Source: a virus
Lineage: Duplodnaviria > Caudoviricetes
IMG/VR virus record: IMGVR_UViG_3300012582_000006
Coordinates: 1-55,329 of that record
DNA: 55,329 nucleotides
Reading direction: 5' to 3' (one strand)
Under the pieces are notes generated by a model. It saw only the letters and a program-made list of their open reading frames with translations. It was not told the origin of the DNA and did no database searches. This document shows, one piece after another, positions 3,496-48,195 of this stretch (its first letter is position 1; every line of letters begins with the position of its first letter). The position numbers and the translations under genes were made by a program.

Positions 3496-3872
3496 GGTGG
3501 AAGGAAATTTACGGAGGCTTGTATCTTCTTTCTGAAAAGGGTGATGTTAGGAACAATTTTCCTCTATCGAGAAGATGTAGACATGACTATAGAGGTAGAC
3601 TTTTAATTCCTTATGTAACGAAGAAGGGATACCTTAGGTTGGAAGTTAGTCCGGATAGGAAGGGTGTTGCTGTTCTTGTTCATAATTTGGTGGCGAAGGT
3701 TTTTGTCGGTCCAAGGCCAAAGGGTAAAGAGGTTAATCACAAGGATACGAACAAGTTGAATAACTGGTATTGGAATTTGGAGTACCTTACGCATGCGGAA
3801 AACATTCGACATGCAGTTGCGCATGGCTTGTACGGTAAAAAGAAAAGAGAAAGAAATGGACAAAATACTTGA
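3486..3872 (+). CDS. HNH homing endonuclease
   Basis: VHNLVAKVFVG...EVNHKDTNKLNNWYWNLEYLTHAENIRH. Confidence 0.9.
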   Translation: MFVRWKEIYGGLYLLSEKGDVRNNFPLSRRCRHDYRGRLLIPYVTKKGYLRLEVSPDRKGVAVLVHNLVAKVFVGPRPKGKEVNHKDTNKLNNWYWNLEYLTHAENIRHAVAHGLYGKKKRERNGQNT

Positions 3873-4122
3873 TGAGCAGTTGGAAGAATTGAAAGGCTTG
3901 GAAGAAGACTATCCAGGTCAGTTGAAAGAGTCTAGAAGGTATAAAATTCTGGAGCGGGCGGTAGACTTGGCGGATGGTATCCTGGTTGATTATTCGGATG
4001 GAGAGGTAGAAGAATTAGATTGGCTTACGGCTCGAGTTGCCGAGTCCTTTTTGAGTAGAGTAGTCGTTCGTTTGCAGTCTTCGATGCTTAGAAAAGATAT
4101 GGAAGAGTGGATGAAGAAATGA
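3856..4122 (+). CDS. hypothetical protein
   Basis: ORF overlapping both neighbours (ATGA coupling at the 3' end). Confidence 0.55.
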   Translation: MDKILDEQLEELKGLEEDYPGQLKESRRYKILERAVDLADGILVDYSDGEVEELDWLTARVAESFLSRVVVRLQSSMLRKDMEEWMKK

Positions 4123-5219: not shown

Positions 5220-5220
5220 G

Positions 5221-5365
5221 TTTGGCTAGGTAAGGCGTGGTTTGGTAAGGTGATGTTAGGTAAGGCGTGGTGTGGTTGTGTAGGGTTAGGTTCGGTAAGG
5301 TAATGCGAGGTGAGGTTGGTTAGGGTGAGGTTGGGTCGGCCGAGGTAATGTTGGGTGTGGTGAGG
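5221..5365 (+). repeat. GGY-NN pentamer array 1 (29 in-phase units); candidate guide-type ncRNA
   Basis: tttgg ctagg taagg cgtgg ... tgtgg tgagg; every unit starts with a pyrimidine, 23/29 end in GG, middle dinucleotide varies. Confidence 0.95.
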
Positions 5366-5369
5366 GAAA

Positions 5370-5561
5370 GTGAATACCGTTACGAGTCAATGTCCACAGT
5401 GTAAGAACTGGTTGACGTTGGGCTTGGATGTTGAGTTCCTGTGTCACGTATGGTGTCCTTTTTGTCAAGAGAATTTGGAATTTCACATTAGTTACTTTGT
5501 ATCATTGGGTTCAAAGGCCTATGGGTGGTTGCTTGGTCGAAAAGAGTTCAAGGTAGGATGA
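5370..5561 (+). CDS. small zinc-ribbon protein
   Basis: CPQC...CPFC; RBS is the last array unit (TGAGG). Confidence 0.6.
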   Translation: MNTVTSQCPQCKNWLTLGLDVEFLCHVWCPFCQENLEFHISYFVSLGSKAYGWLLGRKEFKVG

Positions 5562-5564
5562 TTT

Positions 5565-5768
5565 ATGAAAGTCAGTGAGTGGCTTAAGCAGTATCAGATG
5601 ACAGGAGAAGTTCCTGAACTTACTGATTCGGAACATGGAGTATTAATGGCTTTCTGGTGTGGATGGCTAATAGGTCCGTCACACTCGCAGATAGCAGTGA
5701 CTATGGATGATCGTAGATCGATGGCTATTAAAGCGGCTGAGTTTATCGAAGAGCGTGCGAGAGGATAA
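5565..5768 (+). CDS. hypothetical protein
   Basis: ORF with AGGA RBS in operon context. Confidence 0.55.
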   Translation: MKVSEWLKQYQMTGEVPELTDSEHGVLMAFWCGWLIGPSHSQIAVTMDDRRSMAIKAAEFIEERARG

Positions 5769-5917
5769 AAATGAAATGGATATATAGATGGATGCAGTGT
5801 AACTTGTTGGCTGATGGTTGGGATGTCCCTCCAAGTAAGGAGGATGGTTGGGAGTTGCTCTCTTTGAGTGTCTCAACGTATCCGGTGGCTATTTTGTTGT
5901 GGAGGAAGGCTCAATAA

Positions 5918-7819
5918 ATGGCTTACCAGAATTTGCTACATTTTGATGACGACACGAAAGCCTTCGAAGTGGTGCCTGAGAAGGGTCAGAAGAAGGAAAA
6001 GAAAAAGGCTGTGTCGAAGAAGGATCAGAATAGAGGTTGCGACTTTTGTCCGCTGAACAAAGTGAAGGGTTTGAAGAAGGTAAAAAATCTAGATAAGCTC
6101 AGAGGCAAAGAGATCATGGTCTGGGCACAGAATCCTGGGGAAGAGGAAAATAGACAAGGAAAGGAACTGGTTGGTCCAGCAGGTCAGTTTCTTTGGGAGC
6201 ATGCGGAATCGGTTGGGTTGAAGAGAGAAGATTGCGACATACAGAACGTGGTCCGATGTTGGACGATATCGGAAAATGAGTTTGGTCAGTGGGAGCCGAG
6301 GAGTCCTTCGAAAGAGGAATTACATTGTTGTTCGATCTATACCGAAGAGGCTTTAGAGAAGACTTATGGTAAAACAAAGGTGCATATCGTCTTCGGTCAG
6401 GTGGCAGCGAAGGTCTTGTTGAAGGGAGAGTATCGGAAGGACCAGAAGACATTTTTTTCTGAGAAGTTAAAGGCTTGGGTGATTTTGACCTATCATCCGA
6501 GTTACTTCCTGCGTGGGGCTCCGCGTTCCAAAATTCAGGAGTTCTTGGAGGCATTGGCAACGGCAGTGGCAAAAGTGAAAGGCGGAACTGGTAGGTTCAC
6601 GTATATCGAGAGGCAGGATTACAAATCGGTTCCAACAAGAGATTTGAAGGTGGAAATAGAAGATCCGATAAGAGAGGTAGCCTCGAAAGGAATTGTGACA
6701 TCGGTGGATATCGAGGATGGCACGAATGATAAAGGTGAGAATGTAATCGTGTACGTCGGGTTCTCTTGGAAGAAGGGGCATTCAAGAGGGGTGTTCTTCG
6801 ATCACCGGGATTTGAAAAATTCTCCGGAAGAGCAACAAGCAAAGTTTCATGTTGTGTCCGGAATTATTACCGATCCAAATATTCCTAAAGCATTGCAGAA
6901 CGGTGTGTATGATGTGTGGAAGTTCTTGAAGTTGTGGTCGTTGAAGGTGAAGGGCTTCGTACATGATACGATGTTCTCTGAGTATTTGAGATACTCCGGT
7001 CGAAAGGCCTATGGTCTGGAAGCGATCTCGGATATTCGATTCAGGGAGTTTGCTGGGTACAAAGGAATTCTTGATCCGTATCGTGATCCGAAGACTGGAT
7101 TGGTGAATTTTTGGACCGTTCCAATGAAGGTAATCCGGGTGTATAACGGTGCGGATTGTGATCTGACCAAAAGAATTCAACGCGACAACAAAGGAAAGGT
7201 GAACGAGTCGCTCCTGAAAGTTTTGATTCTTGTGGCGCCGGTGTTGGCGAAGATGGAAATAGAGAGTGGTCCACTTTTGGATTTCGAGCATGCGGATTTG
7301 TTGGATCGGTGGTTACCGGTACGATTGGAGTCTTTGCTGAAGGAGCTTCGTCATCTTGCCGATAACAAGAAGTTCAATCCGAATTCGACGCCGCAAGTGG
7401 TTGAGATCATCTACGACAAGTTGAAGCTTGGAAAATATCTGGACGTGGAATGGAAACGAGATTATCCCAGGTCGACGAACAAAGAGACGATGTTGCTGTT
7501 GGAATCTTTCCACGCCTTTCCAAAGAGGATGCAGGAGTACAGGAAGCTAGCAAAGAAGAAATCAACGTATTTGGATGCCTATCGGAAATCAGCGACTCTT
7601 CACGAAGGTCGTGTCAGGACAAAGTGGTGGTTGACTGGAACGATTACCTGTCGGTTGCGGTCTGGTGGTGAAAAGATAAAAAAGAAAGGGGAAGAGTCGG
7701 ACAAGGAAAAAGGGATCGTGAATCTGCAAAATATCCACGGGGCGGAGGAGATTGAGTGTTTGCTGGTGTCGGATATGAGATGGCGTGAGTTGTACAAAGA
7801 ATGGAGAGAACAACAATGA
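5918..7819 (+). CDS. polA: family A DNA polymerase, N-terminal part: UDG-family-4-like domain + 3'-5' exonuclease + thumb
   Basis: CDFCPL, AQNPGEEE..VGPAG, YHPSY (UDG-like); DIE, NGVYD, YNGAD (Exo I-III); FNPNSTPQV, TGTITCRLRS, NLQNI; ends before motif A. Confidence 0.9.
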   Translation: MAYQNLLHFDDDTKAFEVVPEKGQKKEKKKAVSKKDQNRGCDFCPLNKVKGLKKVKNLDKLRGKEIMVWAQNPGEEENRQGKELVGPAGQFLWEHAESVGLKREDCDIQNVVRCWTISENEFGQWEPRSPSKEELHCCSIYTEEALEKTYGKTKVHIVFGQVAAKVLLKGEYRKDQKTFFSEKLKAWVILTYHPSYFLRGAPRSKIQEFLEALATAVAKVKGGTGRFTYIERQDYKSVPTRDLKVEIEDPIREVASKGIVTSVDIEDGTNDKGENVIVYVGFSWKKGHSRGVFFDHRDLKNSPEEQQAKFHVVSGIITDPNIPKALQNGVYDVWKFLKLWSLKVKGFVHDTMFSEYLRYSGRKAYGLEAISDIRFREFAGYKGILDPYRDPKTGLVNFWTVPMKVIRVYNGADCDLTKRIQRDNKGKVNESLLKVLILVAPVLAKMEIESGPLLDFEHADLLDRWLPVRLESLLKELRHLADNKKFNPNSTPQVVEIIYDKLKLGKYLDVEWKRDYPRSTNKETMLLLESFHAFPKRMQEYRKLAKKKSTYLDAYRKSATLHEGRVRTKWWLTGTITCRLRSGGEKIKKKGEESDKEKGIVNLQNIHGAEEIECLLVSDMRWRELYKEWREQQ

Positions 7820-8055
7820 GTGAAAAGCATGTAACGTTCCTCAGGAACGAACCAAAGTCAAAAGTGGAGCTTCTAATTGTGAAAGATGGGTGGTTGCCAC
7901 TGACAGCTAATGGTGAAGATTTGGAGATGGTTCAAGATGCTTACGTTATAAGAGTATGGTCGTTAAGGGCACCATCTGGTGAGGCTCGTGTAAACGAGAT
8001 TAGGTTGAGGGCAAGTGAGATGAGCGTGTTGATGCATTCGGTGGAGGAGAAATGA
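7816..8055 (+). CDS. hypothetical protein lying between the polymerase halves
   Basis: ATGA overlaps with both flanking genes. Confidence 0.6.
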   Translation: MSEKHVTFLRNEPKSKVELLIVKDGWLPLTANGEDLEMVQDAYVIRVWSLRAPSGEARVNEIRLRASEMSVLMHSVEEK

Positions 8056-8573
8056 TCCTCAGTGGACGAGACTTGAAATTGTATATCGATATAGGAAAAT
8101 TGGTAATCGATCCGGTAACACCAGAACAGTTCCAGCAGAACGGTATAGATTTGGTTCTTGAAGAAATTTCGTATATGTCTGGGCCCTTTTGGCTTGGATG
8201 TACGAGAGAAGTATTAGAAATGCCAGATGATCTGATGGCCTTTGTGGAACTCAGGAGTTCGTGGGCTAGACAAGGATTCTTTTTGCCACCGACGATTGTG
8301 GATGCAGGATTCAAAGGAAATTTGACTTTGGAAATGCTGGCCTTTATGGAGCATCCAAAGGAAGCGCTTGGAAGACGGTTTGCTCATTTGATCTTTGCCA
8401 AGACGTCTAGTCCATGTGAAAAATATCAAGGTATGTATTCTGGTCAGCGCGGGATTACACCATCAAAACTGAAGTCAGAATCTAAAGGTCACGTCACGCC
8501 TGATGAAATACTAAGATCACACGGTTATGATCCAGATGAGATTAGAAGGTTGAGTAAAGGAGGAGAAGAATGA
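8052..8573 (+). CDS. dcd: dCTP deaminase (trimeric dUTPase superfamily)
   Basis: MILSGRDL, QQNGIDL, RSSWARQG, VDAGFKGNLTLE, YSGQRG. Confidence 0.9.
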   Translation: MILSGRDLKLYIDIGKLVIDPVTPEQFQQNGIDLVLEEISYMSGPFWLGCTREVLEMPDDLMAFVELRSSWARQGFFLPPTIVDAGFKGNLTLEMLAFMEHPKEALGRRFAHLIFAKTSSPCEKYQGMYSGQRGITPSKLKSESKGHVTPDEILRSHGYDPDEIRRLSKGGEE

Positions 8574-9067
8574 GTTTCGTGTTGCAAGATTGGTTGGGGG
8601 ACCTTTCATTTATGCAACAGAGTGTGTTGCTGACGGCGATTCGTGGTGCGGATACGTTGCCGAAGAGACACATCAGTAAGTATCTTCTTAGGTGGTATCG
8701 TCGTTGTATTTTGACTTGTGCTTTTGAGAAAGTAGTGCACAAGACTCCGGACGAGCCTTGTACTGGAAATTTTACCGGTTCGGTTCCTATGGGATTGGAA
8801 GATTTGTGGCGGACGTACTTGCAAGACATAGATATGATTCTACATCATTTTCATTTGCACGTGTTGCATGCATCTGAGATACTCGGTTACAAGCATCCTG
8901 ATAGACCGATCAGGGAATGGTGGGCAATGTTTTACCATCAGGCGGTTAAGGATATGCACGTTCGTCCGGAGACAGAAGAAGAAATGGATAAGAGGTTGGG
9001 AGATAGTCGGGATCAATGGATGGAAGCTGGTGGACAGCACGAGGTTTGGCATGAGTCTGGCAAGTAA
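8570..9067 (+). CDS. hypothetical phage protein (His-rich helical)
   Basis: translationally coupled ORF; MQQSVLLTAIRG, LLRWYRRC, HHFHLHVLHASEILGYKHPD. Confidence 0.7.
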   Translation: MSFVLQDWLGDLSFMQQSVLLTAIRGADTLPKRHISKYLLRWYRRCILTCAFEKVVHKTPDEPCTGNFTGSVPMGLEDLWRTYLQDIDMILHHFHLHVLHASEILGYKHPDRPIREWWAMFYHQAVKDMHVRPETEEEMDKRLGDSRDQWMEAGGQHEVWHESGK

Positions 9068-9947
9068 GTACGCGGATCTTGATATCTATTTAGGTGCGGA
9101 CCATTCGCAATTGGAAATCCGCGTTCTTGCTCAGATGTCGAAAGATGTATTGCTGACAGAGTTGCTTCAGACGGGTGAGGATATTCATTCTTCTGTTGGT
9201 TACGAGTTGACGGCAATCCCAATCGAGAAGATAAAGAAAGATAGGGATATAAGGACAGCGATCAAAGGGATTCATTTTGGAATTATCTATGGTCTGACGG
9301 AAGAGACTTTGTATCTCAAGTTGAAAGCGGATGCGGCGGAGCGTGGTGAGCAGTTCAACATGACTCGTGAAGAGTTGGGCAAGATCTATAAGGGCTACTT
9401 TAGAAAGTTCAAGGGCGTGGCGGAGTTCATCGAGAAGCAGCATCAATTTGCCCAAGACAACGCTTATGTAATGAGCTTGTTTGGTTTTAGTAGGGAGATT
9501 GCAATAGCAGGAGATGAGACGAGGTCAACGTTTTGGGCGAATCAGGCTGTGAATACACCAATACAAGCTTCGGCACATCAGTTGATGTTGGTGGCGATGG
9601 CAATTTTGGGTTTGAAACAGAAGACGTATAGCTTGTTGCAACGGCCTTCGATGGAAGTACACGATTCGCTTTACGTGTTTGTGAAGCTGATGAAGTTGGC
9701 GGAAGCCTATAAACAATTCATCCAGCTCATGGAAAAAGAGATTTTGGTATATGTGAAGAAGTGGTGGCCGGAAGTGAACTGGGTGATTCCGTTGAAGGCC
9801 GAGGCGAAAGCTGGGTTGAGATTGGGTGTAATGGTTGAGTATAAAGGCGAGTCTCCGGAAGAGTTCATCGAAATGTGGTGTCAGAAGAATAAGAAGTTCG
9901 AGAAGAAACTGCGAGAGGAAATGAAGAAAGGATTGGCCAATGCGTAG
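9051..9947 (+). CDS. polA: family A DNA polymerase, C-terminal catalytic (palm/fingers) part
   Basis: motif A GADHSQLEIR, DIH, motif B RTAIKGIHFGIIYG, NTPIQ, motif C EVHDSL; GAGGT RBS before ATG 9051. Confidence 0.9.
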   Translation: MSLASKYADLDIYLGADHSQLEIRVLAQMSKDVLLTELLQTGEDIHSSVGYELTAIPIEKIKKDRDIRTAIKGIHFGIIYGLTEETLYLKLKADAAERGEQFNMTREELGKIYKGYFRKFKGVAEFIEKQHQFAQDNAYVMSLFGFSREIAIAGDETRSTFWANQAVNTPIQASAHQLMLVAMAILGLKQKTYSLLQRPSMEVHDSLYVFVKLMKLAEAYKQFIQLMEKEILVYVKKWWPEVNWVIPLKAEAKAGLRLGVMVEYKGESPEEFIEMWCQKNKKFEKKLREEMKKGLANA

Positions 9948-10164
9948 TGAGAAGACGGCTCTTGTGTTGGCTGTAGTGATAACGGTTTTGAGGGGGATGG
10001 TTTGGTTTGTTTTTGCTTTGCTGGTTACTTGGCTTTGTCTTCGAGTGGCAAAGCTGTTGGGACATTGGGAGTATGGGGTGTTGTTGTTTATGGTTGTGGG
10101 GTACTTGGCGAACATTTCGATCAGTCTTTCACAAATACTGCAACGTGTTTCCAGGAAGTACTGA
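9940..10164 (+). CDS. small membrane protein
   Basis: two to three hydrophobic segments. Confidence 0.55.
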   Translation: MRSEKTALVLAVVITVLRGMVWFVFALLVTWLCLRVAKLLGHWEYGVLLFMVVGYLANISISLSQILQRVSRKY

Positions 10165-10187
10165 AAGGGCTTGTATAATAATAGGTC

Positions 10188-10685
10188 ATGACGAGAAAAC
10201 CATTGATCGGCGAAGTAGATCCACAGACGCTTGTAGATCGTCTGGCCTTTTCGCAAGAGGAGACACAGGATGCGGCATTGGAACAAGCGAAGTTGTATAT
10301 GGCTGCGGCGACCTATCGTATCAAGAAGATGCGGCTGAGACAGGAAGCGGAAATGTATGCGGATAATCTTCGGGTTGATTATAGCTTGAAGATGCGGTTT
10401 AAGCACAAAGGTCAAAAGGGAATGACCGAACGGGCAATTCAGGAGCTGGTTGATCGGGTACCTGAGATTCGTCAGGCAACGGCTGACTTGGCAAAGGCGA
10501 AGAGGTTGGAGGAGTGGTCGAAGCTTCTGCTTGATGCTTACGAGCACAGAAGAAGCTCTCTTAAGATTTTGACACAGTTTGCTTTCATGCAAGATGCATT
10601 CAGTGGGCAGTACGAAGTAGACAAGATGAAAAGGCAGAGGGAAAGGTTGAAGAAGGATTTGGGGAAAGAGGAAGAGTATGATTGA
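10188..10685 (+). CDS. helical protein, possible UvsY-like recombination mediator
   Basis: all-helical, MTERAIQELV segment; lies upstream of the SSB and RecA genes. Confidence 0.45.
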   Translation: MTRKPLIGEVDPQTLVDRLAFSQEETQDAALEQAKLYMAAATYRIKKMRLRQEAEMYADNLRVDYSLKMRFKHKGQKGMTERAIQELVDRVPEIRQATADLAKAKRLEEWSKLLLDAYEHRRSSLKILTQFAFMQDAFSGQYEVDKMKRQRERLKKDLGKEEEYD

Positions 10686-10869
10686 CGTTCTAAGGATTTT
10701 TGCGGAGGCTTGTGGTCTTGCAATCATTTTGATTTTTTCGATTGTATTCATGGGTAGGAATTTGGTTTGGTCTCTAAAGGAGGTGGTGGATTATTATTTG
10801 TCGAAGAAACGGGAAATGTTGTTAGAGCTGGAAGAAGGGCTTGGGAGTGCCTCAAAGAAGTTGAATTAA
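10678..10869 (+). CDS. small membrane protein
   Basis: N-terminal hydrophobic helix. Confidence 0.5.
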   Translation: MIDVLRIFAEACGLAIILIFSIVFMGRNLVWSLKEVVDYYLSKKREMLLELEEGLGSASKKLN

Positions 10870-10886
10870 AAACGAAAGGATAAAGC

Positions 10887-11939
10887 ATGGATAAGAAAGA
10901 ACTTGCTGCACAGAAGTTCAAGGAACGGACCGCTTCGAAACGTTTCAAGTTACCGGAAGGGAATACAACGTTTCGTGTGCTTCCGAACGCGAGGGGCCTT
11001 GACAAAGCGGAGTACATTGAGTACAGGATGCACTCCGGTGTAGGAGCTAGAAAATCCTATCTTCGGTGTGGAAAGAATATCCGCGGTGAGGGCGACTGTT
11101 GGTTGTGCGATACGTTGATTCCAAAGTTGGAGAAGTCGGGGAAGTCTTCACACAAGAGAGCGGCTGAGGAACTGAAAGCGAAAGAGAATTTCGCTGTTCA
11201 GATCATCTACAAGTCGGAAGGGAAGTGGATGGGTCCAACGCTGTGGGAAATGTCACCATCGGTTGCTAACAAGCTTTTGAATGTGATGAGCAGAAGGGAT
11301 GTCAGTCATCCGGAAAAGGGATACAATCTGACGATCTCTCGTCAGGGTACGACGATGACCTCGACGAAGTACGGGGACATTGATCGGGATGACGAAAAAT
11401 CTGAAGTGCCGGAGAAGCTTCTTTCGAAGTTGAAGCCCTTTGGTGAGATCCTTCGGAAGTATGACGAGAAGGTCATGAAGGCTGAGTACTACGGGCACGA
11501 GCAGGACGATGACGAACCGGAGGAGGAAGAAGAGGAGAAGAAGAAACCAAAAGACGAGGAAGAAGAAGAGAAGCCGAAACCAAAGAAACTAAAAAAGCCG
11601 GCTGAAGAAGAGGAGGAGGAAGAAAAAGAAGCCGAAGAGGAGGAGGAAGAAAAGCCAAAGCCGAAGAAGCCGAAGAAGGCGGATGCGGAAGAGGAGGAAG
11701 AGGAGTCTGAGTCTGAAGAGGATATTCCAGATCTGGAAGAAGAGGAAGAAGAGAAACCAAAGAAACCGAAAAAACCAAAGGAAGAAGAGGAGGAAGAAAG
11801 TGAGTCCGAAGAAGAGGAAGAAGAAAAACCCAAAAAACCAAAAAAGCCAGCTGCAGACGAAGAAGAAGAATCTGAAGAGGAAGAAGAGCCCAAGCCCAAA
11901 AAACCAAAGAAACCAAGACACGACGAAGACGACGAATGA
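10887..11939 (+). CDS. single-stranded DNA-binding protein (gp32-like) with long acidic/Lys-Pro tail
   Basis: FKLPEGNTTFRVLP, H...C...CWLC metal motif, HPEKGYNLTISRQG..TKY; adjacent to RecA. Confidence 0.75.
   Translation: MDKKELAAQKFKERTASKRFKLPEGNTTFRVLPNARGLDKAEYIEYRMHSGVGARKSYLRCGKNIRGEGDCWLCDTLIPKLEKSGKSSHKRAAEELKAKENFAVQIIYKSEGKWMGPTLWEMSPSVANKLLNVMSRRDVSHPEKGYNLTISRQGTTMTSTKYGDIDRDDEKSEVPEKLLSKLKPFGEILRKYDEKVMKAEYYGHEQDDDEPEEEEEEKKKPKDEEEEEKPKPKKLKKPAEEEEEEEKEAEEEEEEKPKPKKPKKADAEEEEEESESEEDIPDLEEEEEEKPKKPKKPKEEEEEESESEEEEEEKPKKPKKPAADEEEESEEEEEPKPKKPKKPRHDEDDE
11500..11936 (+). repeat. coding low-complexity repeats (poly-Glu blocks alternating with KPKKPK blocks)
   Basis: GAR runs alternating with AARCCR runs, about 6 cycles. 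Confidence 0.9.
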
Positions 11940-12015
11940 TTTAGAAGGTGATAAGGTGATTGTGAACGAGTCTGATTCGGATGACTTGGACGTGGGTCAA
12001 GTTGAAGAGTAAGAG

Positions 12016-12939
12016 ATGAAAACACAGACGACAAAGGTTCGGCCTCTTTCACCGGAGGCCGAACTGACTCTTATCAAAAAGAAATTGAAACATTTTACGA
12101 CGGAGAAGACGGTCAAGTACTGGCTGGATACTGGTAGTCCATTGTTAAATTCCATGTTCGGTTCTGAAGACAAAGGGATTCCGTATGGGAAGATGTTTGA
12201 ACTTTCTGGTTTCGAGTCTCAGGGAAAAACAGCGCTGATGATGAAGTTAGCTGGCATGGCTCAACGCGATGGGGCAAAAATTGGTTGGGTGGATTTGGAA
12301 ATGAGTTGGGATCCTGAATGGGCGAGAGCACTCGGTTTGATTCCAGAAGAGGTTTACCTATTCAAGCCGGAAATAGGAACGTTCGGAAAGGAAACGGAAG
12401 AGCGCCAGCATACAGCGGAGGAGTTGTTGGAAGAAGTTGAGATGTGGATAAAAAGACGTGGTCATGAAAATCCTGATGGTAGGATTTTTTGTTGTATGGA
12501 TTCTATTGCGGCGATGTTGACGGAGGAAGAGGCGGCCGGAGGGATTCAGAATCAAAATATGAGAACGAAAGTATCAACAGCAACATTTCTTTCCCAGCTG
12601 CTGAGGCGTTGGGTGGCAATGGTTGCAAACTACAATGTGATGATGAATTTCATCAATCAGCTTAGGATTGCACCTGGTGCTTGGGGTAATCCTGAATACA
12701 CGCCGGGTGGAAATGCTGTGAGGCTTTATGCATCGGTTCGCGTGCGGATGCGGAGGAAGTCTAAGAAGCTTTTGAAGGGTGGCAAGCCTATCGGTATGAA
12801 GGGTGTGATGTCGAATTGGAAGAACAAGGCGGGAGCTGGTTCTCGTGAAGGGTTGAGTATCGGTTATAAGATTTATTATTCCGGGAAGATAAAGTACGTT
12901 GATGCTGAGGAGGTAAAGCTAGAAGGGACAGAAACATGA
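12016..12939 (+). CDS. recA: RecA/UvsX-like recombinase
   Basis: GIPYGKMFELSGFESQGKT (Walker A), VDLE, MDSIAA, FINQLR, TPGGNAVRLYASVR. Confidence 0.92.
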   Translation: MKTQTTKVRPLSPEAELTLIKKKLKHFTTEKTVKYWLDTGSPLLNSMFGSEDKGIPYGKMFELSGFESQGKTALMMKLAGMAQRDGAKIGWVDLEMSWDPEWARALGLIPEEVYLFKPEIGTFGKETEERQHTAEELLEEVEMWIKRRGHENPDGRIFCCMDSIAAMLTEEEAAGGIQNQNMRTKVSTATFLSQLLRRWVAMVANYNVMMNFINQLRIAPGAWGNPEYTPGGNAVRLYASVRVRMRRKSKKLLKGGKPIGMKGVMSNWKNKAGAGSREGLSIGYKIYYSGKIKYVDAEEVKLEGTET

Positions 12940-13220
12940 GTACTATATACGGCTCGAAGTCTTTGACAGAAGTTTCTCTCAGAAGAAAATTGGATGTGGC
13001 ATTGTCGGATGCACTTTTTGGTTATAACAGTTCAAAGCCGTTTGTTCCTAGAAATGTAATTCGAGGTGTCGCTGGTTGGATTTTTTCACTTCATTTGACG
13101 GCTGCGGAAAAAGAGGTGGCTTCACAAATGACGAAGGGCATTTTGTCGGATTACGAGAGAAGGTTGCGGTTGGTTGGACAAGAGCTTGAACAAGAAGTAT
13201 ACAGAAGGAACGGAGGATAA
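12936..13220 (+). CDS. hypothetical protein
   Basis: coupled ORF. Confidence 0.55.
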   Translation: MSTIYGSKSLTEVSLRRKLDVALSDALFGYNSSKPFVPRNVIRGVAGWIFSLHLTAAEKEVASQMTKGILSDYERRLRLVGQELEQEVYRRNGG

Positions 13221-13222
13221 AA

Positions 13223-13483
13223 ATGGCAAAGGAACAGAAAGATAAGATACCGGTAGTGGCAGTGACCTCGACAGAGGAGGTAATGCTCGGTCTTTGGCTT
13301 TCGGTTGCGAAGAGAGAGATAGGAATGTCGGAGGCTGCTTTAAAACTTAGGCTTCATGTTGACTCTTTGTCTGAAGAGAAGCAAGACGAGTTTAGGCTCA
13401 AGGCGAGGCCGTGGGGAATGTGGTTGATGTCAATTTCGGAAGCGTTCTTGCAGGAGCTGACTGTAATAGGAGCTAGCAAATGA
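13223..13483 (+). CDS. hypothetical protein
   Basis: GGAGG RBS, coupled ORF. Confidence 0.6.
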   Translation: MAKEQKDKIPVVAVTSTEEVMLGLWLSVAKREIGMSEAALKLRLHVDSLSEEKQDEFRLKARPWGMWLMSISEAFLQELTVIGASK

Positions 13484-13740
13484 CATGGAAAGCGTGGTTG
13501 AAAGCTTTTGGGCTTTTTCTTTTCGTAATTGTGCTGGTATGGGGAGTAGATTTTGCGTTAAGCTTGATGAACAAATCTACCGGTTTGTTGTTGGTAGGTT
13601 TGTTCATTCTGTTTGTTTTGATGTCGTCATGTTTGTTGGTAGGTCAGTTTCTTTATAAGGAATGGCAATCGTTCGACCAGACGGTAAAAGAATTTCTTTG
13701 GCCAGAGCGGTTTAAGAAAGAAAAGAAAAAGGAGGAATGA
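13480..13740 (+). CDS. two-TM membrane protein
   Basis: two hydrophobic helices; upstream of SPFH gene. Confidence 0.6.
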   Translation: MTWKAWLKAFGLFLFVIVLVWGVDFALSLMNKSTGLLLVGLFILFVLMSSCLLVGQFLYKEWQSFDQTVKEFLWPERFKKEKKKEE

Positions 13741-13744
13741 GACG

Positions 13745-14647
13745 ATGTCGATAGAAGCAAGAGTGACGATGTTGATTGCGTTTGTGGTGTTGTTGCTTGT
13801 GGTGGTATTTGGTGTATTTGGTTGTACAAGAATTGGGGCTGGGCATGTTGGTATAGAGGTGAACCAGGCCGGTTCGCAGCGTGGTGTGCAGGACTTTACG
13901 ATAAGGACCGGATATGTCTTCTACAATCCATTGGCAACGACGATCGTAGAATATCCCACATTTGTACAGACGGCAATCTGGACGGCGAATCCACATGAAG
14001 GACATCCACAGAATGAAGAGATCACGTTTACGACAAAAGATTCAATGGTCGTGTCTGTAGACGTGAATCTCAGCTATTCGTTATTGGCGGAAAAAGTACC
14101 AGCATTCTATGTGAAGTTCAGGTCGGATGATCTGGATATGTTTACGCACGGGTTTTTGAGGAACGTGGCGAGGGATTGTTTCAACGAGGTTGCTGGTAAG
14201 TATGCAGTGGAACAGATTATGGGTGACAACGCTCCGTTTTTGCGTGATGCCAGAAGTTGCTTGCAGAATCAAGTAGCAGACATCGGTGTGCATATAGAAC
14301 AGTTTGGGATCATCGGTGCGCCGAGACCGCCGCAAGGAGTGATTGATTCGATTAACGCGAAAGTACAGGCTGGTCAGATTGCTTTGCAGAAGAGGAACGA
14401 AGTGTTGCAGGCTGAGGCCGAAGCTGCGAAGACCGTTGCTTATGCCGAGGGTGAAGCAAAAGCTATGGTAACGAGGGCAGAAGGTCAGGCGAAATCAAAC
14501 AGACTTATTAGCGAAAGTTTGACGGATAAGGTTCTAGAGAGAACCAGATTGGATTTGCAATGGCATTGGATCGATAAGTGGAACGGACAGAGGCCGAGTG
14601 TTGAGTCAACCGCGGGTGGAGGGATGTTGATTCAGGTTCCAAAGTAA
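13745..14647 (+). CDS. SPFH/band 7 (prohibitin-like) membrane protein
   Basis: N-terminal TM, IGAGHVGI, YPTFVQT, AEAEA coiled coil, WIDKWNG. Confidence 0.9.
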   Translation: MSIEARVTMLIAFVVLLLVVVFGVFGCTRIGAGHVGIEVNQAGSQRGVQDFTIRTGYVFYNPLATTIVEYPTFVQTAIWTANPHEGHPQNEEITFTTKDSMVVSVDVNLSYSLLAEKVPAFYVKFRSDDLDMFTHGFLRNVARDCFNEVAGKYAVEQIMGDNAPFLRDARSCLQNQVADIGVHIEQFGIIGAPRPPQGVIDSINAKVQAGQIALQKRNEVLQAEAEAAKTVAYAEGEAKAMVTRAEGQAKSNRLISESLTDKVLERTRLDLQWHWIDKWNGQRPSVESTAGGGMLIQVPK

Positions 14648-14650
14648 AGT

Positions 14651-14775
14651 TAAGGTGTGGTTAGGTCGGGTGCGGTTAGGTCCGGTACGGCGAGGTGCGG
14701 TACGGTTTGGTGTGGTACGGTCAGGTCCGGTCAGCTCGGGAGAGGCCAGGTATGGTGAGGTAAGGTTTGGTGTGG
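14651..14775 (+). repeat. GGY-NN pentamer array 2A (25 units)
   Basis: taagg tgtgg ttagg tcggg ... tttgg tgtgg; 24/25 units end in GG. Confidence 0.95.
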
Positions 14776-14822
14776 TGTGAGGGAAAAATGAAGTGAAGAG
14801 CTTAGCTGAGGAGATGGCATTG

Positions 14823-14952
14823 TGAGGTTTGGTCCGGTGTGGTAATGTTCGGTCAGGTGTTGTAAGGTGCGGCTTGGTAAGGTTTGGTGTGGCGAGGTCG
14901 AGTGTGGTACGGTCAGGTGTTGTCGGGTGTGGTGAGGTTTGGTAGGGTGAGG
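14823..14952 (+). repeat. GGY-NN pentamer array 2B (26 units)
   Basis: tgagg tttgg tccgg tgtgg ... taggg tgagg; 22/26 units end in GG. Confidence 0.95.
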
Positions 14953-14957
14953 ATTAA

Positions 14958-15617
14958 ATGAACGAACGGGAACTGATTGATTCGTTCCATCGCTTGTGGT
15001 ATTCAAAGGGACAATTTCAGATGAAAATAGGCGGTGACGATGATTCAGTTCTAGTTCAGTTGGATGCACGCTACTGCGGATTTCTGGTGCAGAAGAATCC
15101 TTTGGACTTGTGGGTCTATCAAGAAATTTTGTGGGATACAAAGCCGGATTTGATAATCGAGATGGGAACGGCTTCAGGTGGTACGACTCTTTTCTTGGCG
15201 AACCAGTTGGATCTGATCGGTAGTGGTGAGATAATCTCGGTCGATATAGACAATCGGTTGGGAATAGTTCCGAGGCATCCGAGAATAACGTATATCGTTG
15301 GCGATACGGAAAATGCCTATTTGCACAACGAGATTTTCAAAGAGTGTCAGAAGCACAGCAGTGGCATGGTGATTCTTGACGACGACCATTCTACCGAGCA
15401 CGTTTTGCTTGAGTTAAAAATGTATAATGAGTTTGTAACACCGGGTCAGTATCTGATCGTGGAAGATACGAATGTGGATTGGCCGCTAGGATATGGCGAT
15501 GGTCCTGGGAAAGCCGTTCACGAGTTTTTGAAAACGCATTCGGAATTCGAAGTTGATAGGAAACGGGAAAAGTTCTTGATGACGTGGAATCCGGGCGGTT
15601 ACTTGAAAAGGAAGTAG
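14958..15617 (+). CDS. CmcI / rhamnosyl O-methyltransferase family protein
   Basis: KNPLDLWVYQEILWDTKPDLIIEMGTASGG, ILDDDH, YLIVEDT, NPGGYLKR. Confidence 0.85.
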   Translation: MNERELIDSFHRLWYSKGQFQMKIGGDDDSVLVQLDARYCGFLVQKNPLDLWVYQEILWDTKPDLIIEMGTASGGTTLFLANQLDLIGSGEIISVDIDNRLGIVPRHPRITYIVGDTENAYLHNEIFKECQKHSSGMVILDDDHSTEHVLLELKMYNEFVTPGQYLIVEDTNVDWPLGYGDGPGKAVHEFLKTHSEFEVDRKREKFLMTWNPGGYLKRK

Positions 15618-15619
15618 GT

Positions 15620-15862
15620 ATGAGCTACTTGATTCCACTTTTGCTGATTGTTGTTGTTGCTAGACTTGGAAGATTTTTTGCTGCGAGGGGTAACGATCAT
15701 TTTTGGAAGTGCTATAACATTGGTTGGATTAGTAGTAGCTGTGGAGTTTTATGTAGTCGGTTGAAGGGACATTGGGGTCCTCATAAAACTTCACCGATGG
15801 GTGCTTTGCAGTGGTATCACGAATGGAAAGGAGATGGGAAGACGGAAGTTCGTTGGGAATAG
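15620..15862 (+). CDS. hypothetical membrane-anchored protein
   Basis: N-terminal hydrophobic stretch; CGVLCSRLKGHWGPH motif. Confidence 0.45.
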   Translation: MSYLIPLLLIVVVARLGRFFAARGNDHFWKCYNIGWISSSCGVLCSRLKGHWGPHKTSPMGALQWYHEWKGDGKTEVRWE

Positions 15863-15880
15863 TATGAAAGGGATAGCGCG

Positions 15881-16906
15881 ATGCAACGAACGTTGGCTGT
15901 TTCGTTAAGACCTTATCTGCTTAGCCAGCTCATCGGACAGGATCAGCTGGTAGAGACAATTAAGACTCAGTACAAGAACAAACGAGAACCAGCTGCTTGG
16001 TTGTTTGTCGGTTCGACCGGAACTGGTAAGACGACCGTGGCGAGGATAGTGGCACTGAGTTTGCAGTGTAAGCATGGTGAGTTTGGAGAGCCGTGTGATG
16101 CTTGTCGGGTAAAGAGAGACGATTTCGCAATCCACGAAATAAATGCCTCAGAAGTTTCAGGTGTTGCGGACATTCAAAAGATTGCTGCTGGTTCTGTATA
16201 CTTACCAATGCCTCCGTCTCGTAGAAACGTACTTGTGTTGGACGAGGCACAACGACTTTCCAAAGATGCACAGAATCTGTTGCTGAAATATTTGGAAGAT
16301 GCTCCTAAATCAACGGTGTGGATTATTTGTACGACGGAAGAGAACAAGTTGTTGACGACGATCATAAGACGATGCGAACGAGTGTCGTTGAAATTGCTGC
16401 AAGCGGAGGATATAGGACGATTGGTAAAGCGCGCTTTGAAGTTCGTTAGAGAAACAAAGAAAAATGCGGAACCATTGGTGGAGCAGTTGTGGGAAGCTAG
16501 GATTCAATCGTCCGGTATGATTTTGAATGCGGTTGAGAAGTATCTGGCTGGTGAGTCTGCTAAGGAAGCTGTATCGTCAATCGGATTTGGTGCCGACGCA
16601 CTTGCGATCTGTCGTTCGTTGGAGAAGGGGGACTGGGATGTCATACGAGAAGAGACAAAAAAAGCTACAGCTGATGACCTTCGAGGAATTCGTGCTCAGG
16701 TGGCTGGATACTTGCGACGATGTTTGGAACGAGCGATTCCAGGACCCAGGGCGGGAGAGTTCGCGAAAGCGATTGGAAGAATGGCGCAAGTTGATAGCTT
16801 CACGGATGCAACACAAGGACCGGCAACAATTGCCGCTCTCTATGAACTCTGTCAGATTTTTGCAGGGCCGGTAGACGATCTTGACGAGGTTAGACGAGAT
16901 GATTAG
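15881..16906 (+). CDS. dnaX: clamp loader, DNA polymerase III gamma/tau-like AAA+ ATPase
   Basis: LRP..LIGQ, GSTGTGKTTVARI, C...PCDAC, EINAS, LDEAQRLS..AQNLLLKYLE, TIIRRC. Confidence 0.85.
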   Translation: MQRTLAVSLRPYLLSQLIGQDQLVETIKTQYKNKREPAAWLFVGSTGTGKTTVARIVALSLQCKHGEFGEPCDACRVKRDDFAIHEINASEVSGVADIQKIAAGSVYLPMPPSRRNVLVLDEAQRLSKDAQNLLLKYLEDAPKSTVWIICTTEENKLLTTIIRRCERVSLKLLQAEDIGRLVKRALKFVRETKKNAEPLVEQLWEARIQSSGMILNAVEKYLAGESAKEAVSSIGFGADALAICRSLEKGDWDVIREETKKATADDLRGIRAQVAGYLRRCLERAIPGPRAGEFAKAIGRMAQVDSFTDATQGPATIAALYELCQIFAGPVDDLDEVRRDD

Positions 16907-17321
16907 GATTAGAATGACGGATGCGGAAGGGCACGGTTACTGGTTGTACGATGATGGGCAATTCGTTTTGGCACTGAAAGAAAAGCCGTCGGTAGGTATT
17001 CAGTTCAGAACGATAGCGTGGTTGAAGAAAGGGGTCTTTTCGTTTAGACATTTGTACTGGCACAAAGAACATAAGTGTTGGTATCCGTCCAGGTTTCCGA
17101 TGATGAAGACAAAGTCGTTTGGGATCAAGATCGGCTATGTGCAAGAGATGGTGGATGGAGAAGAGTTCAAAGGTTTTGTGCATCCGAGGGTCTTGACGAA
17201 GCGGAATGTAATTAGACACTCGACGGGATATGAAGTCCAGTTGAAGTTGATGCCGAAGGATTTGAAGAAAACAGAAGAGGCGGCAATTGAGTATTGGCAA
17301 GAGTTTGGTACGGCGAGGTGA
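16899..17321 (+). CDS. hypothetical basic protein; last codons run into array 3
   Basis: ORF coupled to dnaX; no recognisable motif. Confidence 0.6.
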   Translation: MIRIRMTDAEGHGYWLYDDGQFVLALKEKPSVGIQFRTIAWLKKGVFSFRHLYWHKEHKCWYPSRFPMMKTKSFGIKIGYVQEMVDGEEFKGFVHPRVLTKRNVIRHSTGYEVQLKLMPKDLKKTEEAAIEYWQEFGTAR

Positions 17322-17553
17322 GGTTAGGTGTGGTGAGGTGCGGTCGGCCGAGGTGTGGTCAGGTGAGCCTAGGTGCGGTTTGGTGTGGTAATGTCAGGCG
17401 TGGTCTGGTGCTGTAAGGTAAGCTCTGGTGAGGTACGGTGATGTAAGGTGCGGTTTGGCGGGGTAAGGTGATGTTAGGTTGGGCCCGGTACGGTGCTGTG
17501 AGGTTAGGTGTGGTATGGTCGGCTATGGCGAGGTAATGTGAGGTGTGGTGAGG
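17304..17553 (+). repeat. GGY-NN pentamer array 3 (50 in-phase units)
   Basis: tttgg tacgg cgagg tgagg ... tgtgg tgagg; 250 bp without phase slip, 40/50 units end in GG. Confidence 0.95.
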
Positions 17554-20361
17554 ATTCTGATTACAAGTGACTGGCAGACAGATTATGAAAACCTTGAACT
17601 TTGTTCAAAGGCTGCGGAAGAAATTTTGCAGCTGAAGGAAGAGCATAGGTTCGAGGTTCTCATACATGCAGGAGACTTGAAGCGTCAGTACAATCCGATA
17701 GATGTTCGTATCGTAAACTTTTGGTTGAAGATGATTGGAAAGTGTCGGAAGGCTGGATTGGAAGTTTTCGTTAACCTTGGAAATCACGATCGGGTTGGGA
17801 TGCATGTTGATACACAAAATTGGTTGCCGGTGGTCAGAAAAGCCGGTGCGTTCGCTTATGATGAGCCGCAGCTTGTTGTGGGGTCGTTTACCGATCGTGG
17901 TGTCTCGATTCCACCGTTGGCATTTCTTCCCTTTAGAAACAATCCTGTTTTGTTGAAGCGTGAAGCTCATGATCTTGCTAAGAAAGCAAACGAGAACAGC
18001 ATTCTGATTTTCCATTGCGATTTGAAGAATGCTAGGTACAATGTGCTTTCTCGTTCTGCGGTTGATCTATCGGTTGAGGATCTGTATCCGGATAAGTACA
18101 TGTTCTGTGTTGGTGGTCATTTACACTTTCAGCATAAGGTAGCGGATAATATTTGGTATGTTGGTAGTCCATTCGCAATGGATTGGGGAGAAGCAAACCA
18201 GCGGAAGGGTTATTTGTTGATTGATACACTAAAGAAAACGATCAAGAGAATTCGCTCAAAGATTCCAGGATGGTACGATCCAAATTGGCCTGGATTTGAG
18301 GAGTCGAAGCCGGAGAGTTGGAAAGGGGCCAAGGTAAGGATCAAGGTTCCGTGCGATGGAGTTCAGCATGTTAGAGAGCTACTTGAAAAAGCACGGGTGG
18401 AAGCGGCTAAGAAATATGATGGAGCAGAGATTGTTACAGTTCCTGAATTTCGTGAGGCGGAGAGGGCTGAAGGGAAGATTAGATTGGGTCTTCCTGATGA
18501 AAAGAAAATCAGAATCTACGTACAAGAGACACTGCCGGATGAATTGAGAGGTTATGAATCGGCAATCAAGAAATATCTCGTGGAGCAGCTTTCACTTGTC
18601 GGTGGTTTGGAAAGGGAGCATGGGGAGCTAAAGTTTCTAAAGACACGGGCTAGAAACTTTCTTAGCTATGAGAAATTAGACTTTATATTTGAGCCAGGGC
18701 TTTGTGTGATAGCAGGAGAGAATAAAGATTGGAAGGGAAGGAGCAATGGAAGTGGGAAGACATCGGCATTGCAACCGATTGCAGTAACTTTATTTGGACA
18801 GACATTCAAAGGACAGAAGCATGATGGCTGGATGAGACGTGGTACGGATAAGAAGGAAGAGGTCTTTGCAAAAGTTTGGTTTCAGGATTCCCAAGGAAGA
18901 GCCTGTTGGGTCAATAGACCTAGGCAACCAAAAGAATCAAAGCTGAAGCTGGTAGTGGATGGTGATGTGGTAGAAAGCGGAAACAGACCGGAGAGTACGC
19001 AGAAGTTGATCGAGCAGGTAACCGGTTACACTTGGGAGACGCTTGCGAATGCAATCTACATCGATCAGTCGAAATCCCATTTGATGTTGACGGGAACGGA
19101 GTCGGAGCGAAAAGGATTTCTTGCCAAGTTACAAAACTTGGAAAGGTTCGAGCGGGCTGAGAAATCCGTCCGGGACCAAAAGAGCGACTTTGAGCGCCGC
19201 TACGAGTTGAATTCTGACCGTCTACAATCCGTTTTAACGGAGGAAAAGAACCTACTCGACACAATATCCCGTGCGAAGCGGATTTTAGCTCTAAACGCGT
19301 CTGTGTCGGTTTCTTACCGTCGCGTGAAACGACTGTTTTTGTCGAAAAAGGCTGAATTAGAGACTTGGGAAGCAAAAGCCGAGATGAACTTGACGTTACT
19401 TGACAAGGAGCTTGTTGAAATAGAAAAAGTAGACAAAGAAATGACTAAACAGTTGGCTTCAGTGGAAGAGAGATTGGATGTACTTAGGACCAGATTGTCG
19501 AAGTTCAAAAGAATGGAAGGTGTCTGTCCGACCTGCGAGCGTGTGATAGATGAGAAGGCAATTCAGTTGGCGATTCCGGAAATGGAAAAGAAAATACGTG
19601 GACTGGAAAAACAGGTCGAAGGTTTTGGGGGACTGGAATGGCAACGTAAGTCGCAGAGGAGAGGGCTCGAGAACAAAAAGATAAAGTGGCTCAGGAACAA
19701 AAGCTTGGCTGGTGAGGTTTCAGACCTGCAAGTGAGAATGGAAAAACTGAAGTTCGAGTGGCTTCAGTACAAGAGGCAGCAAGAGTTGATTGATGGCTTG
19801 CAGAAGCAGGTGAATCAGTGTAAGGAGCTTGGTAGTGGTTTGACTAGAAAGAAAATCAAGATCGGAAAATGGCTCAAGGTGCTGAAGTACTCTCAATCGG
19901 TATTCCAAAGAAACGGATTGCCTGCATCGTTGAATCAACAGATCTGTCCAGAATTGAATCAGGCGGCGGCGGAGTATGCTGAACTATTTGCTCAGAGAGA
20001 AATTCAGGTTCGGTTTGCTGTGGACGAAGAAGGAAGACTGGATGTGCGGGTGATTAATGCACACGGTGGTGAAGGGGTAGCGGATCAATCGGAAGGTGAA
20101 ATGAAAATGGCTTCGTTGATCACTTCCTTTGCGGTGAGATCGGTGGCACCGAAGACGAACATCCTGATTTTGGATGAGCCGGGTGACGGCTTGGATGCGA
20201 TTTCGGCAAGGAGTTTTGCTAGAGGGTTGAAGCAGGTGACGGATCGGTTCGGAAGTATTTTGTTGACGACTCATAATCCAGCAATCTTATCTGAGCTGGC
20301 GGATGCAAAGTTGGTGGTGGTCAGAAAAGAAAACGGGATAAGCGAGGTGGTCGATGGCTAG
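17545..20361 (+). CDS. fused SbcD(Mre11)-SbcC(Rad50) nuclease-ATPase
   Basis: TSDWQ, HAGDL, LGNHD, GGHLH, YVGSP (metallophosphoesterase), then NGSGKTS, CPTC zinc hook, SEGE signature, LILDEP, LTTH in one ORF. Confidence 0.9.
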   Translation: MVRILITSDWQTDYENLELCSKAAEEILQLKEEHRFEVLIHAGDLKRQYNPIDVRIVNFWLKMIGKCRKAGLEVFVNLGNHDRVGMHVDTQNWLPVVRKAGAFAYDEPQLVVGSFTDRGVSIPPLAFLPFRNNPVLLKREAHDLAKKANENSILIFHCDLKNARYNVLSRSAVDLSVEDLYPDKYMFCVGGHLHFQHKVADNIWYVGSPFAMDWGEANQRKGYLLIDTLKKTIKRIRSKIPGWYDPNWPGFEESKPESWKGAKVRIKVPCDGVQHVRELLEKARVEAAKKYDGAEIVTVPEFREAERAEGKIRLGLPDEKKIRIYVQETLPDELRGYESAIKKYLVEQLSLVGGLEREHGELKFLKTRARNFLSYEKLDFIFEPGLCVIAGENKDWKGRSNGSGKTSALQPIAVTLFGQTFKGQKHDGWMRRGTDKKEEVFAKVWFQDSQGRACWVNRPRQPKESKLKLVVDGDVVESGNRPESTQKLIEQVTGYTWETLANAIYIDQSKSHLMLTGTESERKGFLAKLQNLERFERAEKSVRDQKSDFERRYELNSDRLQSVLTEEKNLLDTISRAKRILALNASVSVSYRRVKRLFLSKKAELETWEAKAEMNLTLLDKELVEIEKVDKEMTKQLASVEERLDVLRTRLSKFKRMEGVCPTCERVIDEKAIQLAIPEMEKKIRGLEKQVEGFGGLEWQRKSQRRGLENKKIKWLRNKSLAGEVSDLQVRMEKLKFEWLQYKRQQELIDGLQKQVNQCKELGSGLTRKKIKIGKWLKVLKYSQSVFQRNGLPASLNQQICPELNQAAAEYAELFAQREIQVRFAVDEEGRLDVRVINAHGGEGVADQSEGEMKMASLITSFAVRSVAPKTNILILDEPGDGLDAISARSFARGLKQVTDRFGSILLTTHNPAILSELADAKLVVVRKENGISEVVDG

Positions 20362-43084: not shown

Positions 43085-43098
43085 AAAAGGATGACGAT

Positions 43099-44450: not shown

Positions 44451-44566
44451 CGCAGACGATATTGACGACGCGTTGAGCGTGTTGTCAAAACATTTTGCAG
44501 ATGTGATCGACAGTTCATTTCAGTTTGAAGGGAAGTTGGAGATAAAGCCAGAAGGAGAAAAAGAAA

Positions 44567-44998: not shown

Positions 44999-44999
44999 A

Positions 45000-45683: not shown

Positions 45684-45690
45684 GAGAAGA

Positions 45691-48141: not shown

Positions 48142-48195
48142 AAGGTGGCCTTGGTTACAAATTGGGGAGACAGGCAATGAGAATGGAGACAAAAG

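Follow-up and report, generated by a model that had tools for sequence, protein, structure and literature searches.

What do four long tracts of five-base units do in the replication module of an uncultured tailed phage from soil, where they fill the junctions between genes? The tracts lie in IMG/VR virus record IMGVR_UViG_3300012582_000006 (Duplodnaviria; Caudoviricetes), whose 55,329 nucleotides (nt) were analyzed in full and are referred to below as the window; the record is linear and 57% complete according to CheckV. Each tract is a tandem array of the form YNNGG (or GGY-NN), in which Y is a pyrimidine and N any base. The initial annotation of this DNA noted a match to the GGY/NN RNAs of phage VIPR systems, which work with a RAMP/Cas7-like protein, and this agrees with the VIPR preprints. 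In this study, the arrays were compared with VIPR guide RNAs (vrRNAs) and with related phages, focusing on their structure, distribution, turnover and possible targets. We assign a probability of about 75% to the reading that the four arrays are vrRNA arrays and belong to a Vipr clade whose arrays are long and lack tails. VIPR is a known kind of system; the set found in the window represents a long, tail-less and scattered architecture of it.

VIPR systems were described in 2026. According to the available preprint text, vrRNAs comprise 9-16 YNNGG units with a conserved tail and are encoded beside vipr, a RAMP gene of ~200 amino acids (aa), often together with a vap gene (bioRxiv 10.64898/2026.04.26.720920). 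Vipr protomers clamp GGY and show NN to a DNA target that is read as NNx (10.64898/2026.04.26.720920, 10.64898/2026.04.26.720927), and the GGY contacts are a His, a thumb Arg and a G-loop Asp-aromatic-Arg-Pro (10.64898/2026.04.26.720927). Seven VIPR types, staggered arrays, ribozyme arrays and solo vrRNAs have been described (10.64898/2026.04.26.720920, 10.64898/2026.10.15.759431). In the same partial texts, the NNx skip rule is published for type II and applied in searches for types III and V, other types are said to be possibly without tails, and stand-alone vipr genes are mentioned in the Methods (10.64898/2026.04.26.720920). A further preprint, also available in part, counts 99 clusters of period-5 arrays, 76 of which adjoin a Vipr-like gene (10.64898/2026.10.21.760802). 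Solo vrRNAs on vipr-less phages and satellites are reported as one or two each, for example at the site of a vipr-vap1 deletion (10.64898/2026.10.15.759431).

Structure of the arrays

The arrays of the window, with the spacer that parts two of them, are as follows.

5221-5365, + strand: array 1, 29 YNNGG units
14651-14775, + strand: array 2, 25 units, the first 16 fully canonical
14776-14822, + strand: spacer between arrays 2 and 3, 47 nt, changing the register by 2
14823-14952, + strand: array 3, 26 units
17304-17553, + strand: array 4, 50 units

Recounting gave 130 units, 129 of which begin with a pyrimidine (113 T, 16 C) and 109 of which end in GG; 16 of 16 dinucleotides are present at NN, and none of the 126 pairs of neighboring units is identical. 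These figures and the coordinates are identical to those of the initial annotation. Its statement that no phase slip occurs stands in so far as each array keeps one register throughout, but units 20-21 of array 1 (TTGGT TAGGG) resemble a compensated one-base slip. The 130 units match the published YNNGG definition, which favors a VIPR-type assignment.

The regularity of the arrays is far from that of random sequence. The best 25-unit stretch contains 23 YNNGG units, whereas 10 simulations of the window under a first-order Markov model gave 5-7. A six-unit pattern (at most one mismatch) was matched 79 times on the + strand and 0 times on the - strand, with 7 and 0 matches for a backwards control. 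The arrays thus lie on the + strand only, at gene junctions of the replication region, as noted in the initial annotation. Elsewhere in the window, runs of three or more units numbered 3, against 1-4 in 10 simulations, and none was found on the - strand. Since these runs are at chance level, the search for further arrays left exactly four in the 55,329 bases.

Contigs of two other soil-metagenome runs were found to match positions 4814-5361 (array 1 minus its last 4 bases) and 14425-15107 (the whole of arrays 2 and 3) with 0 differences. Over array 1, a contig of a second run covers 4790-5270 (the first 50 bases of the array), also with 0 differences. Because independent contigs match exactly, the arrays are not artefacts of assembly. 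Contigs of four DNA runs contain no variants within the arrays, so that there is no strain microdiversity to read. The arrays are non-coding, because TAA, TAG and TGA abound in them. Folding revealed no significant structure (z from -1.15 to +1.17) and no gain from a G-quadruplex option, which leaves the G-quadruplexes suggested at the outset unfavored; unstructured arrays are as expected for a single-stranded scaffold for protein. There was no Rfam match at E <= 1 in 4000-18500.

A Vipr homolog in a complete relative

Relatives of the window were collected with its clamp-loader protein, which led to four loci. One of them, G001, is a genome of 128,576 bp with direct terminal repeats (100% complete by CheckV), whose positions 38156-96567 are collinear with the window. 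It carries eight arrays, without exception on the strand of its genes, at 37.4, 42.8, 50.5, 108.0, 112.2, 121.0, 121.8 and 126.9 kb; a ninth call at 15946 proved to be glycine-rich coding DNA and was rejected.

A Vipr profile was prepared from relatives of the Vipr protein of phage SUSP1 (529 at E <= 0.001 among 567 candidates; 118 of 120 listed sequences entered the profile) and run over 975 six-frame open reading frames (ORFs) of the window and G001. Only one of them fell below E 0.2, namely a 179-aa ORF of G001 (121145-121684; E 5.6e-20), which is situated between the sixth and seventh arrays. This ORF also matched PDB chain 36pp_D, 'SUSP1 Vipr protein', at E 3.1e-9. In an alignment with nine IMG/VR relatives and 15 SUSP1 Vipr relatives, it retains the His, the thumb Arg-x-Arg-Pro and the G-loop Asp-aromatic-Arg-Pro. 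Its structural model (predicted local distance difference test, pLDDT, 89.3; predicted template modeling score, pTM, 0.83) has Csm3 chains of type III-A complexes as top Foldseek matches (E 6.6e-9). On the strength of sequence and model, the ORF is identified as a Vipr homolog with a predicted Csm3/Cas7 fold. Only two of the eight G001 arrays flank this gene; the other six lie 5-84 kb from it.

The nine IMG/VR relatives in that alignment are 49-59% identical to the G001 protein, and each of the nine loci has arrays immediately next to vipr, which run without interruption for 7-33 units (longest per locus 12-33). In this Vipr clade, long arrays are accordingly the rule, and the arrays of the window are akin to arrays that stand beside vipr. 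The RNA-binding protein family whose co-occurrence had been named as a test in the initial annotation was thus found next to arrays in G001 and in 9/9 relatives. In relatives of the G001 Vipr (L036), and likewise in phage G008, blocks of 10-33 units abut one another with a shift of 1-2 bases. Besides vipr, no ORF family that might represent a vap-like neighbor is common to more than two of the 10 clade loci, antisense ORFs over vipr or the arrays excepted. The G001 clade is 25-35% identical to the aligned type II proteins, with gaps in the N-terminal third, a part that we take, from the alignment, to correspond to the helical-bundle region. In relative L033 (4526-4783), the arrays are separated by 29 nt of conserved spacer sequence, which resembles a repeat between guides. 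The clade thus has three ways of punctuating its arrays, the others being the 1-2-base shifts and no punctuation at all.

Comparison with known systems and other phages

The SUSP1 locus (KT454805) comprises four tailed arrays (12, 16, 15 and 7 units) and a 195-aa gene that carries the residues named in the available text of the structure preprint (10.64898/2026.04.26.720927). The window shares with this type II system the tandem YNNGG units, the location on a phage, the strand of the neighboring genes and, in its complete relative, a Vipr homolog. The SUSP1 vrRNAs as published in the accessible text are ~100 nt long, tailed and within 1 kb of vipr-vap1, whereas the arrays of the window have 25-50 units and no tails. 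The SUSP1 arrays cluster at vipr, whereas those of the window occupy replication-gene junctions, from stop codon to ribosome-binding site, and have as neighbors not vipr but the genes for a 370-aa protein, an SPFH protein, a methyltransferase, a 146-aa protein (orf146) and SbcCD. Staggered vrRNA arrays, in which tail-less vrRNAs follow directly upon one another, are mentioned in a legend (fig. S18, 10.64898/2026.04.26.720920) and recall L036 and G008; the window differs in that one register is kept for 25-50 units and no block boundaries are visible. Solo vrRNAs of F5 satellites and of VIPR-null members of the SUSP1 family likewise lie away from vipr (10.64898/2026.10.15.759431), but the reported number is one or two each, while here many long arrays stand at unrelated junctions and a complete member of the lineage still has vipr.

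CRISPR systems with Cas7 (Csm3) filaments are similar in the predicted Cas7/Csm3 fold of the G001 protein and, as far as the published VIPR mode is accessible, in placing one protomer per fixed period of RNA; the window differs in having no repeat-spacer structure and a period of 5 rather than 6, and no other cas genes were seen in its family scans. Another protein that reads repeated triplets is TRAP, whose sites consist of 9-11 (G/U)AG triplets with spacers of 2-3 nt and which is encoded by its own gene (MtrB). The triplet of the window is GGY, its arrays have 25-50 units, and no such Pfam family was found among the 40 window proteins scanned.

Three features were absent from the VIPR preprint text available, namely arrays that reach from a stop codon to the following ribosome-binding site, runs of 25-50 units without interruption and genome-wide scatter in a lineage with vipr; figures and supplements of those preprints may bear on all three, and may include this clade or scattered arrays. 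To see how common such scatter is, IMG/VR was scanned for 12 perfect units, which gave at least 136 stretches; among the matches listed, contigs with two stretches have both within ~1.5 kb. Of five large array-bearing phages searched whole, four (G005, G006, G007 and G008) each have all arrays in one locus of no more than 1.5 kb and the fifth, G009, has three over 6.4 kb, as compared with four arrays over 12 kb of replication genes in the window. Scatter of the kind found in G001 and the window is unusual among the genomes examined.

Turnover at orthologous sites

The site of array 1 is occupied by 29 units in both the window and G001, so that the two can be compared unit by unit. The Y, G and G positions are identical in 23, 23 and 24 of the 29 units, and the two N positions in 12 and 11 (40%; 12-40%, mostly ~30%, in shifted registers); the coding DNA just upstream of the array is 69% identical. 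At orthologous sites, GGY is kept and NN is scrambled. The divergence of NN at this distance is indistinguishable from neutral drift.

The number of units also changes. After the gene for the 370-aa protein there are 29 units in the window, 29 in G001 and 10 in G004, another relative. At the junction of orf146 and sbcCD, the window has 50 units, G004 has three and an extra small gene, and G001 has no array but ~2 units, its junction reading TTTG-TGAAGG with overlapping stop and start codons. In G003, a relative at 47-84% protein identity, there is no array in 29 kb. At fixed junctions, then, arrays come and go and change in length without loss of register, while their NN positions take on new content. 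Comparison of orthologous arrays had been proposed in the initial annotation, and the outcome (GGY constant, NN different, unit numbers of 29/29/10 and ~2/3/50) is in line with the constant scaffold and variable doublet described there. Blocks of NN common to different phages were no more frequent than in shuffles (23 vs 20.6, 3 vs 2.6 and 0 vs 0.2 for runs of 3, 4 and 5).

The arrays mark junctions of accessory-gene turnover. The small gene 3' of the array-1 site encodes 63 aa in the window (5370-5561), 98 aa in G001 (42983-43279) and 79 aa in G004 (1323-1562), and no tblastx match was obtained between the window and G001 versions. A pair consisting of a small transmembrane ORF and an SPFH/Band-7 gene is placed differently in the window (13480-14647), G001 (127057-128161) and G003 (11410-12228); it adjoins arrays in the window, where they follow it, and in G001, where an array precedes it.

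Target searches and evidence against a VIPR assignment

Several observations weigh against the assignment of the four arrays to VIPR. No vipr gene was found in the window, in which the best match to the Vipr profile had E 0.21 (six-frame ORFs of at least 70 aa) and a phmmer search of 425 ORFs with SUSP1 Vipr and Vap1 gave nothing below E 0.5. The expectation that a RAMP/Cas7-like gene would accompany the arrays therefore failed in the window itself and held in the collinear genome, where two arrays flank the gene. The absence is uninformative, because the vipr gene of G001 lies outside the collinear span; judging from synteny, vipr of this phage would be encoded in the missing ~43% of its genome, and a contig that is only 57% complete is itself a weakness of the assignment. 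The arrays have no conserved 3' tail or ribozyme, their 3' flanks differ from each other and run into the next start codon, and their length exceeds the 9-16 units of the vrRNAs described in the accessible text. No RNA runs containing the sequence were listed for 14000-18000. NN usage is skewed (GA, GT, AA and TT account for 72 of the 130 units), which lowers the information content, and hypervariable NN positions would also follow from neutral drift if only GGY mattered.

The searches for targets belong to the same side. The window arrays were compared, with skips of 0, 1, 2 and 3, with both strands of the window, G001, G003 and G004 (234 kb), and no match above shuffles was obtained; at skip 3, only trivial self-hits stand out. 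One candidate, the pairing of array 4 units 31-40 with the antisense strand of the 370-aa gene (wobble-aligned; 18/20 in relatives, 17/20 in self), was rejected, as 124 of 1122 shuffles reach it. Twelve arrays were likewise compared with the nine Vipr loci, G008 and G009 (0.53 Mb over the two strands together), and none exceeded the maximum of its own 40 shuffles.

Three public collections were scanned with exact NNx seeds without mismatch, and no match extended beyond the seed; with 4 of ~100 possible seeds used, these scans are weak evidence either way. The seed of array 2 units 1-10 had 0 matches in each of viral, genome and metagenome contigs, that of array 2 units 9-16 had 0 in viral contigs, and that of array 4 units 2-11 had 0 in metagenome contigs. 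The seed of array 2 units 8-16 matched four genome contigs of unrelated bacteria, which agree at 3-9 of 32 positions outside the seed, as expected by chance. A conserved peptide in these four matches was dismissed as well, being forced by the pattern, with stops in three of the four frames. The gapped targets proposed in the initial annotation thus did not emerge above shuffled background, the collections having been searched by these few exact seeds only.

Alternative explanations

The arrays might be solo or orphan arrays of a phage without vipr, which would load onto, redirect or soak up the Vipr of a co-infecting rival or helper. The window, in which vipr is missing, is consistent with this, and vipr-less phages and satellites with solo vrRNAs have been published (10.64898/2026.10.15.759431, available in part). 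A further example may be G009 (L178), a 105-kb phage (93% complete) with three T-type arrays of 14-16 units over 6.4 kb (566-6929), in which the first unit contains the upstream stop codon. No Vipr match at E <= 1e-3 was found in G009, which may be a vipr-less carrier of solo arrays; it has no relationship to the window, with similarity confined to the C-terminal PolA part (27%). Yet the only complete close relative, G001, has vipr together with remote arrays, its gene lies where the window could not include it, and 130 units are far above the one or two solo vrRNAs of the accessible descriptions. We consider this explanation unlikely.

The position of the arrays raises a second possibility, namely that they act mainly in cis as intercistronic elements, as a platform for the binding of a protein (Vipr or another) or for ribosome loading in which NN is free to drift. 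Such a platform would govern how the next gene is translated or divide the polycistronic transcript, and would be compatible with a guide role. Array 1 starts 1 nt past the stop codon of the 370-aa gene (4107-5219), and 4 nt separate its end from the GTG of a Cys-rich ORF of 63 aa (5370-5561). The start of array 2 is 3 nt past the stop codon of the SPFH/Band-7 gene (13745-14647), and array 3 stops 5 nt short of the ATG of a methyltransferase gene of the CmcI type (14958-15617). The first units of array 4 encode the last residues and stop codon of the 146-aa ORF (16881-17321), and its last units contain the ribosome-binding site and GTG (17545) of the fused SbcD-SbcC gene, ending 9 nt past the start codon. 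In four phages, 15 of 17 arrays start at -18 to +3 nt from the upstream stop codon, and 10 of 17 end at -9 to +9 nt from the next start codon. Where an array ends there, its last T(G/A)AGG unit also supplies the ribosome-binding site. Sites resembling promoters or terminators were no more frequent next to the arrays than expected by chance, and the drift-like divergence of NN is also what this explanation would predict.

Two observations stand against a mainly cis-acting role. Relatives manage with 0-3 units at these junctions, and the 29 kb of G003 contain no array, so that no gene needs one; and arrays of like build adjoin vipr in 9/9 relatives. Such a role as the main one is accordingly judged distinctly improbable. 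Of the Shine-Dalgarno-like ribosome traps considered in the initial annotation, the likeness is real for the last unit or units of an array and otherwise found no support.

That the arrays are functionless slippage satellites or G-quadruplex-forming DNA spreading at G-rich junctions is very hard to credit, for although multi-unit duplications occur within them (periods of 15-40, 60-85% match) and unit number changes fast, no two neighboring units are identical, the scaffold positions are kept while NN varies, the strand bias is strict, arrays are associated with vipr across ten loci and quadruplexes are not favored in folding.

Proposed mode of action and implications

If the four arrays are vrRNA arrays, they would be transcribed within polycistronic early/replication transcripts of the + strand. 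Protomers of Vipr, a minimal Cas7-like RAMP protein probably encoded in the missing ~43% of the genome as in G001, would polymerize on this RNA, one per five-base unit, clamping GGY and exposing the NN pairs, and flanks not covered by Vipr would be trimmed. The resulting filaments could read the double-stranded DNA of rival mobile elements through a gapped NNx code and thereby silence them. The arrays would grow, shrink and be rewritten in place, at junctions whose stop codons and ribosome-binding sequences already resemble units.

A tentative and rather doubtful extension is that the intercistronic spacers of such phages form a distributed guide library. In this proposal, arrays would expand in place from TTTG-TGAGG-like junctions and be cut from ordinary mRNAs, without a promoter, tail or ribozyme of their own, while Vipr loading, given that the last unit is also the ribosome-binding site of the next gene, would tune translation or split the operon transcript. 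If true, it would provide a route for the birth of guides and tie their biogenesis to gene expression; neither appears in the VIPR texts available.

Known VIPR loci, as far as the accessible descriptions go, are compact, with vipr and a few short tailed vrRNAs alongside. If the scattered arrays are used, a single phage would have more than 100 guide units (the window has 130 within 12 kb, and the eight arrays of G001 add up to 154), expressed from replication operons without dedicated promoters or processing signals. This bears on how vrRNAs are made, on the length of Vipr filaments and on the origin of new guides. For annotation, a search restricted to the surroundings of vipr would miss most arrays in such genomes.

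Genomic setting and further observations

The + strand carries 76 of the 87 ORFs picked in the window. The arrays are situated in a replication module whose genes, named from family matches, include a split family-A polymerase, a RecA/UvsX-like recombinase, an SSB-like gene, a clamp loader, a fused SbcD-SbcC and ThyX. The Pfam scan covered 40 window proteins, and the remaining proteins were compared with PHROGs only. There was no family match for the 370-aa gene preceding array 1, which by our reading of its sequence may be a sliding-clamp-like gene ('clamp gene'). A DNA search of the phage collection with 4107-7819 gave no match. The RecA-like protein is no more than 33% identical to that of any isolate among the best 15 of 903 matches, and with so low an identity no host can be named.

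The spacer between arrays 2 and 3 contains two mini-ORFs of 2 and 3 codons (ATG AAG TGA and ATG GCA TTG TGA), each after GAGG; it may be a remnant of the start and end of a deleted gene.

Upstream of the replication module are 7-deazaguanine genes, comprising a homolog of DpdA/TGT-like tRNA-guanine transglycosylases at 1508-2533 and a GTP cyclohydrolase I at 2833-3495. The genes in 1508-3495 suggest 7-deazaguanine modification of the phage DNA, and they raise the question of whether modified G in targets or arrays affects VIPR.

The family-A polymerase is encoded by two separate genes, of which the first (5918-7819) has an N-terminal UDG-like domain and the second is at 8868-9947. The interval contains a dCTP-deaminase-like gene (8052-8573) and two ORFs, 84 and 165 aa long, without family match. 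A single 938-aa gene at 17545-20361 combines SbcD (Mre11-like phosphoesterase) with SbcC (Rad50-like ATPase). The SSB-like gene has a long, acidic and lysine-rich low-complexity repeat tail (11520-11940). A perfect 33-bp tandem duplication at 35744-35811, inside the ORF 35089-35889, encodes the peptide SSGEVQLQSVE twice. Positions 43006-54302 carry a cluster of sugar-nucleotide epimerase/dehydratase genes (three phrog_540 matches), a methyltransferase and further unnamed genes, which may have a role in surface-glycan or DNA-sugar modification.

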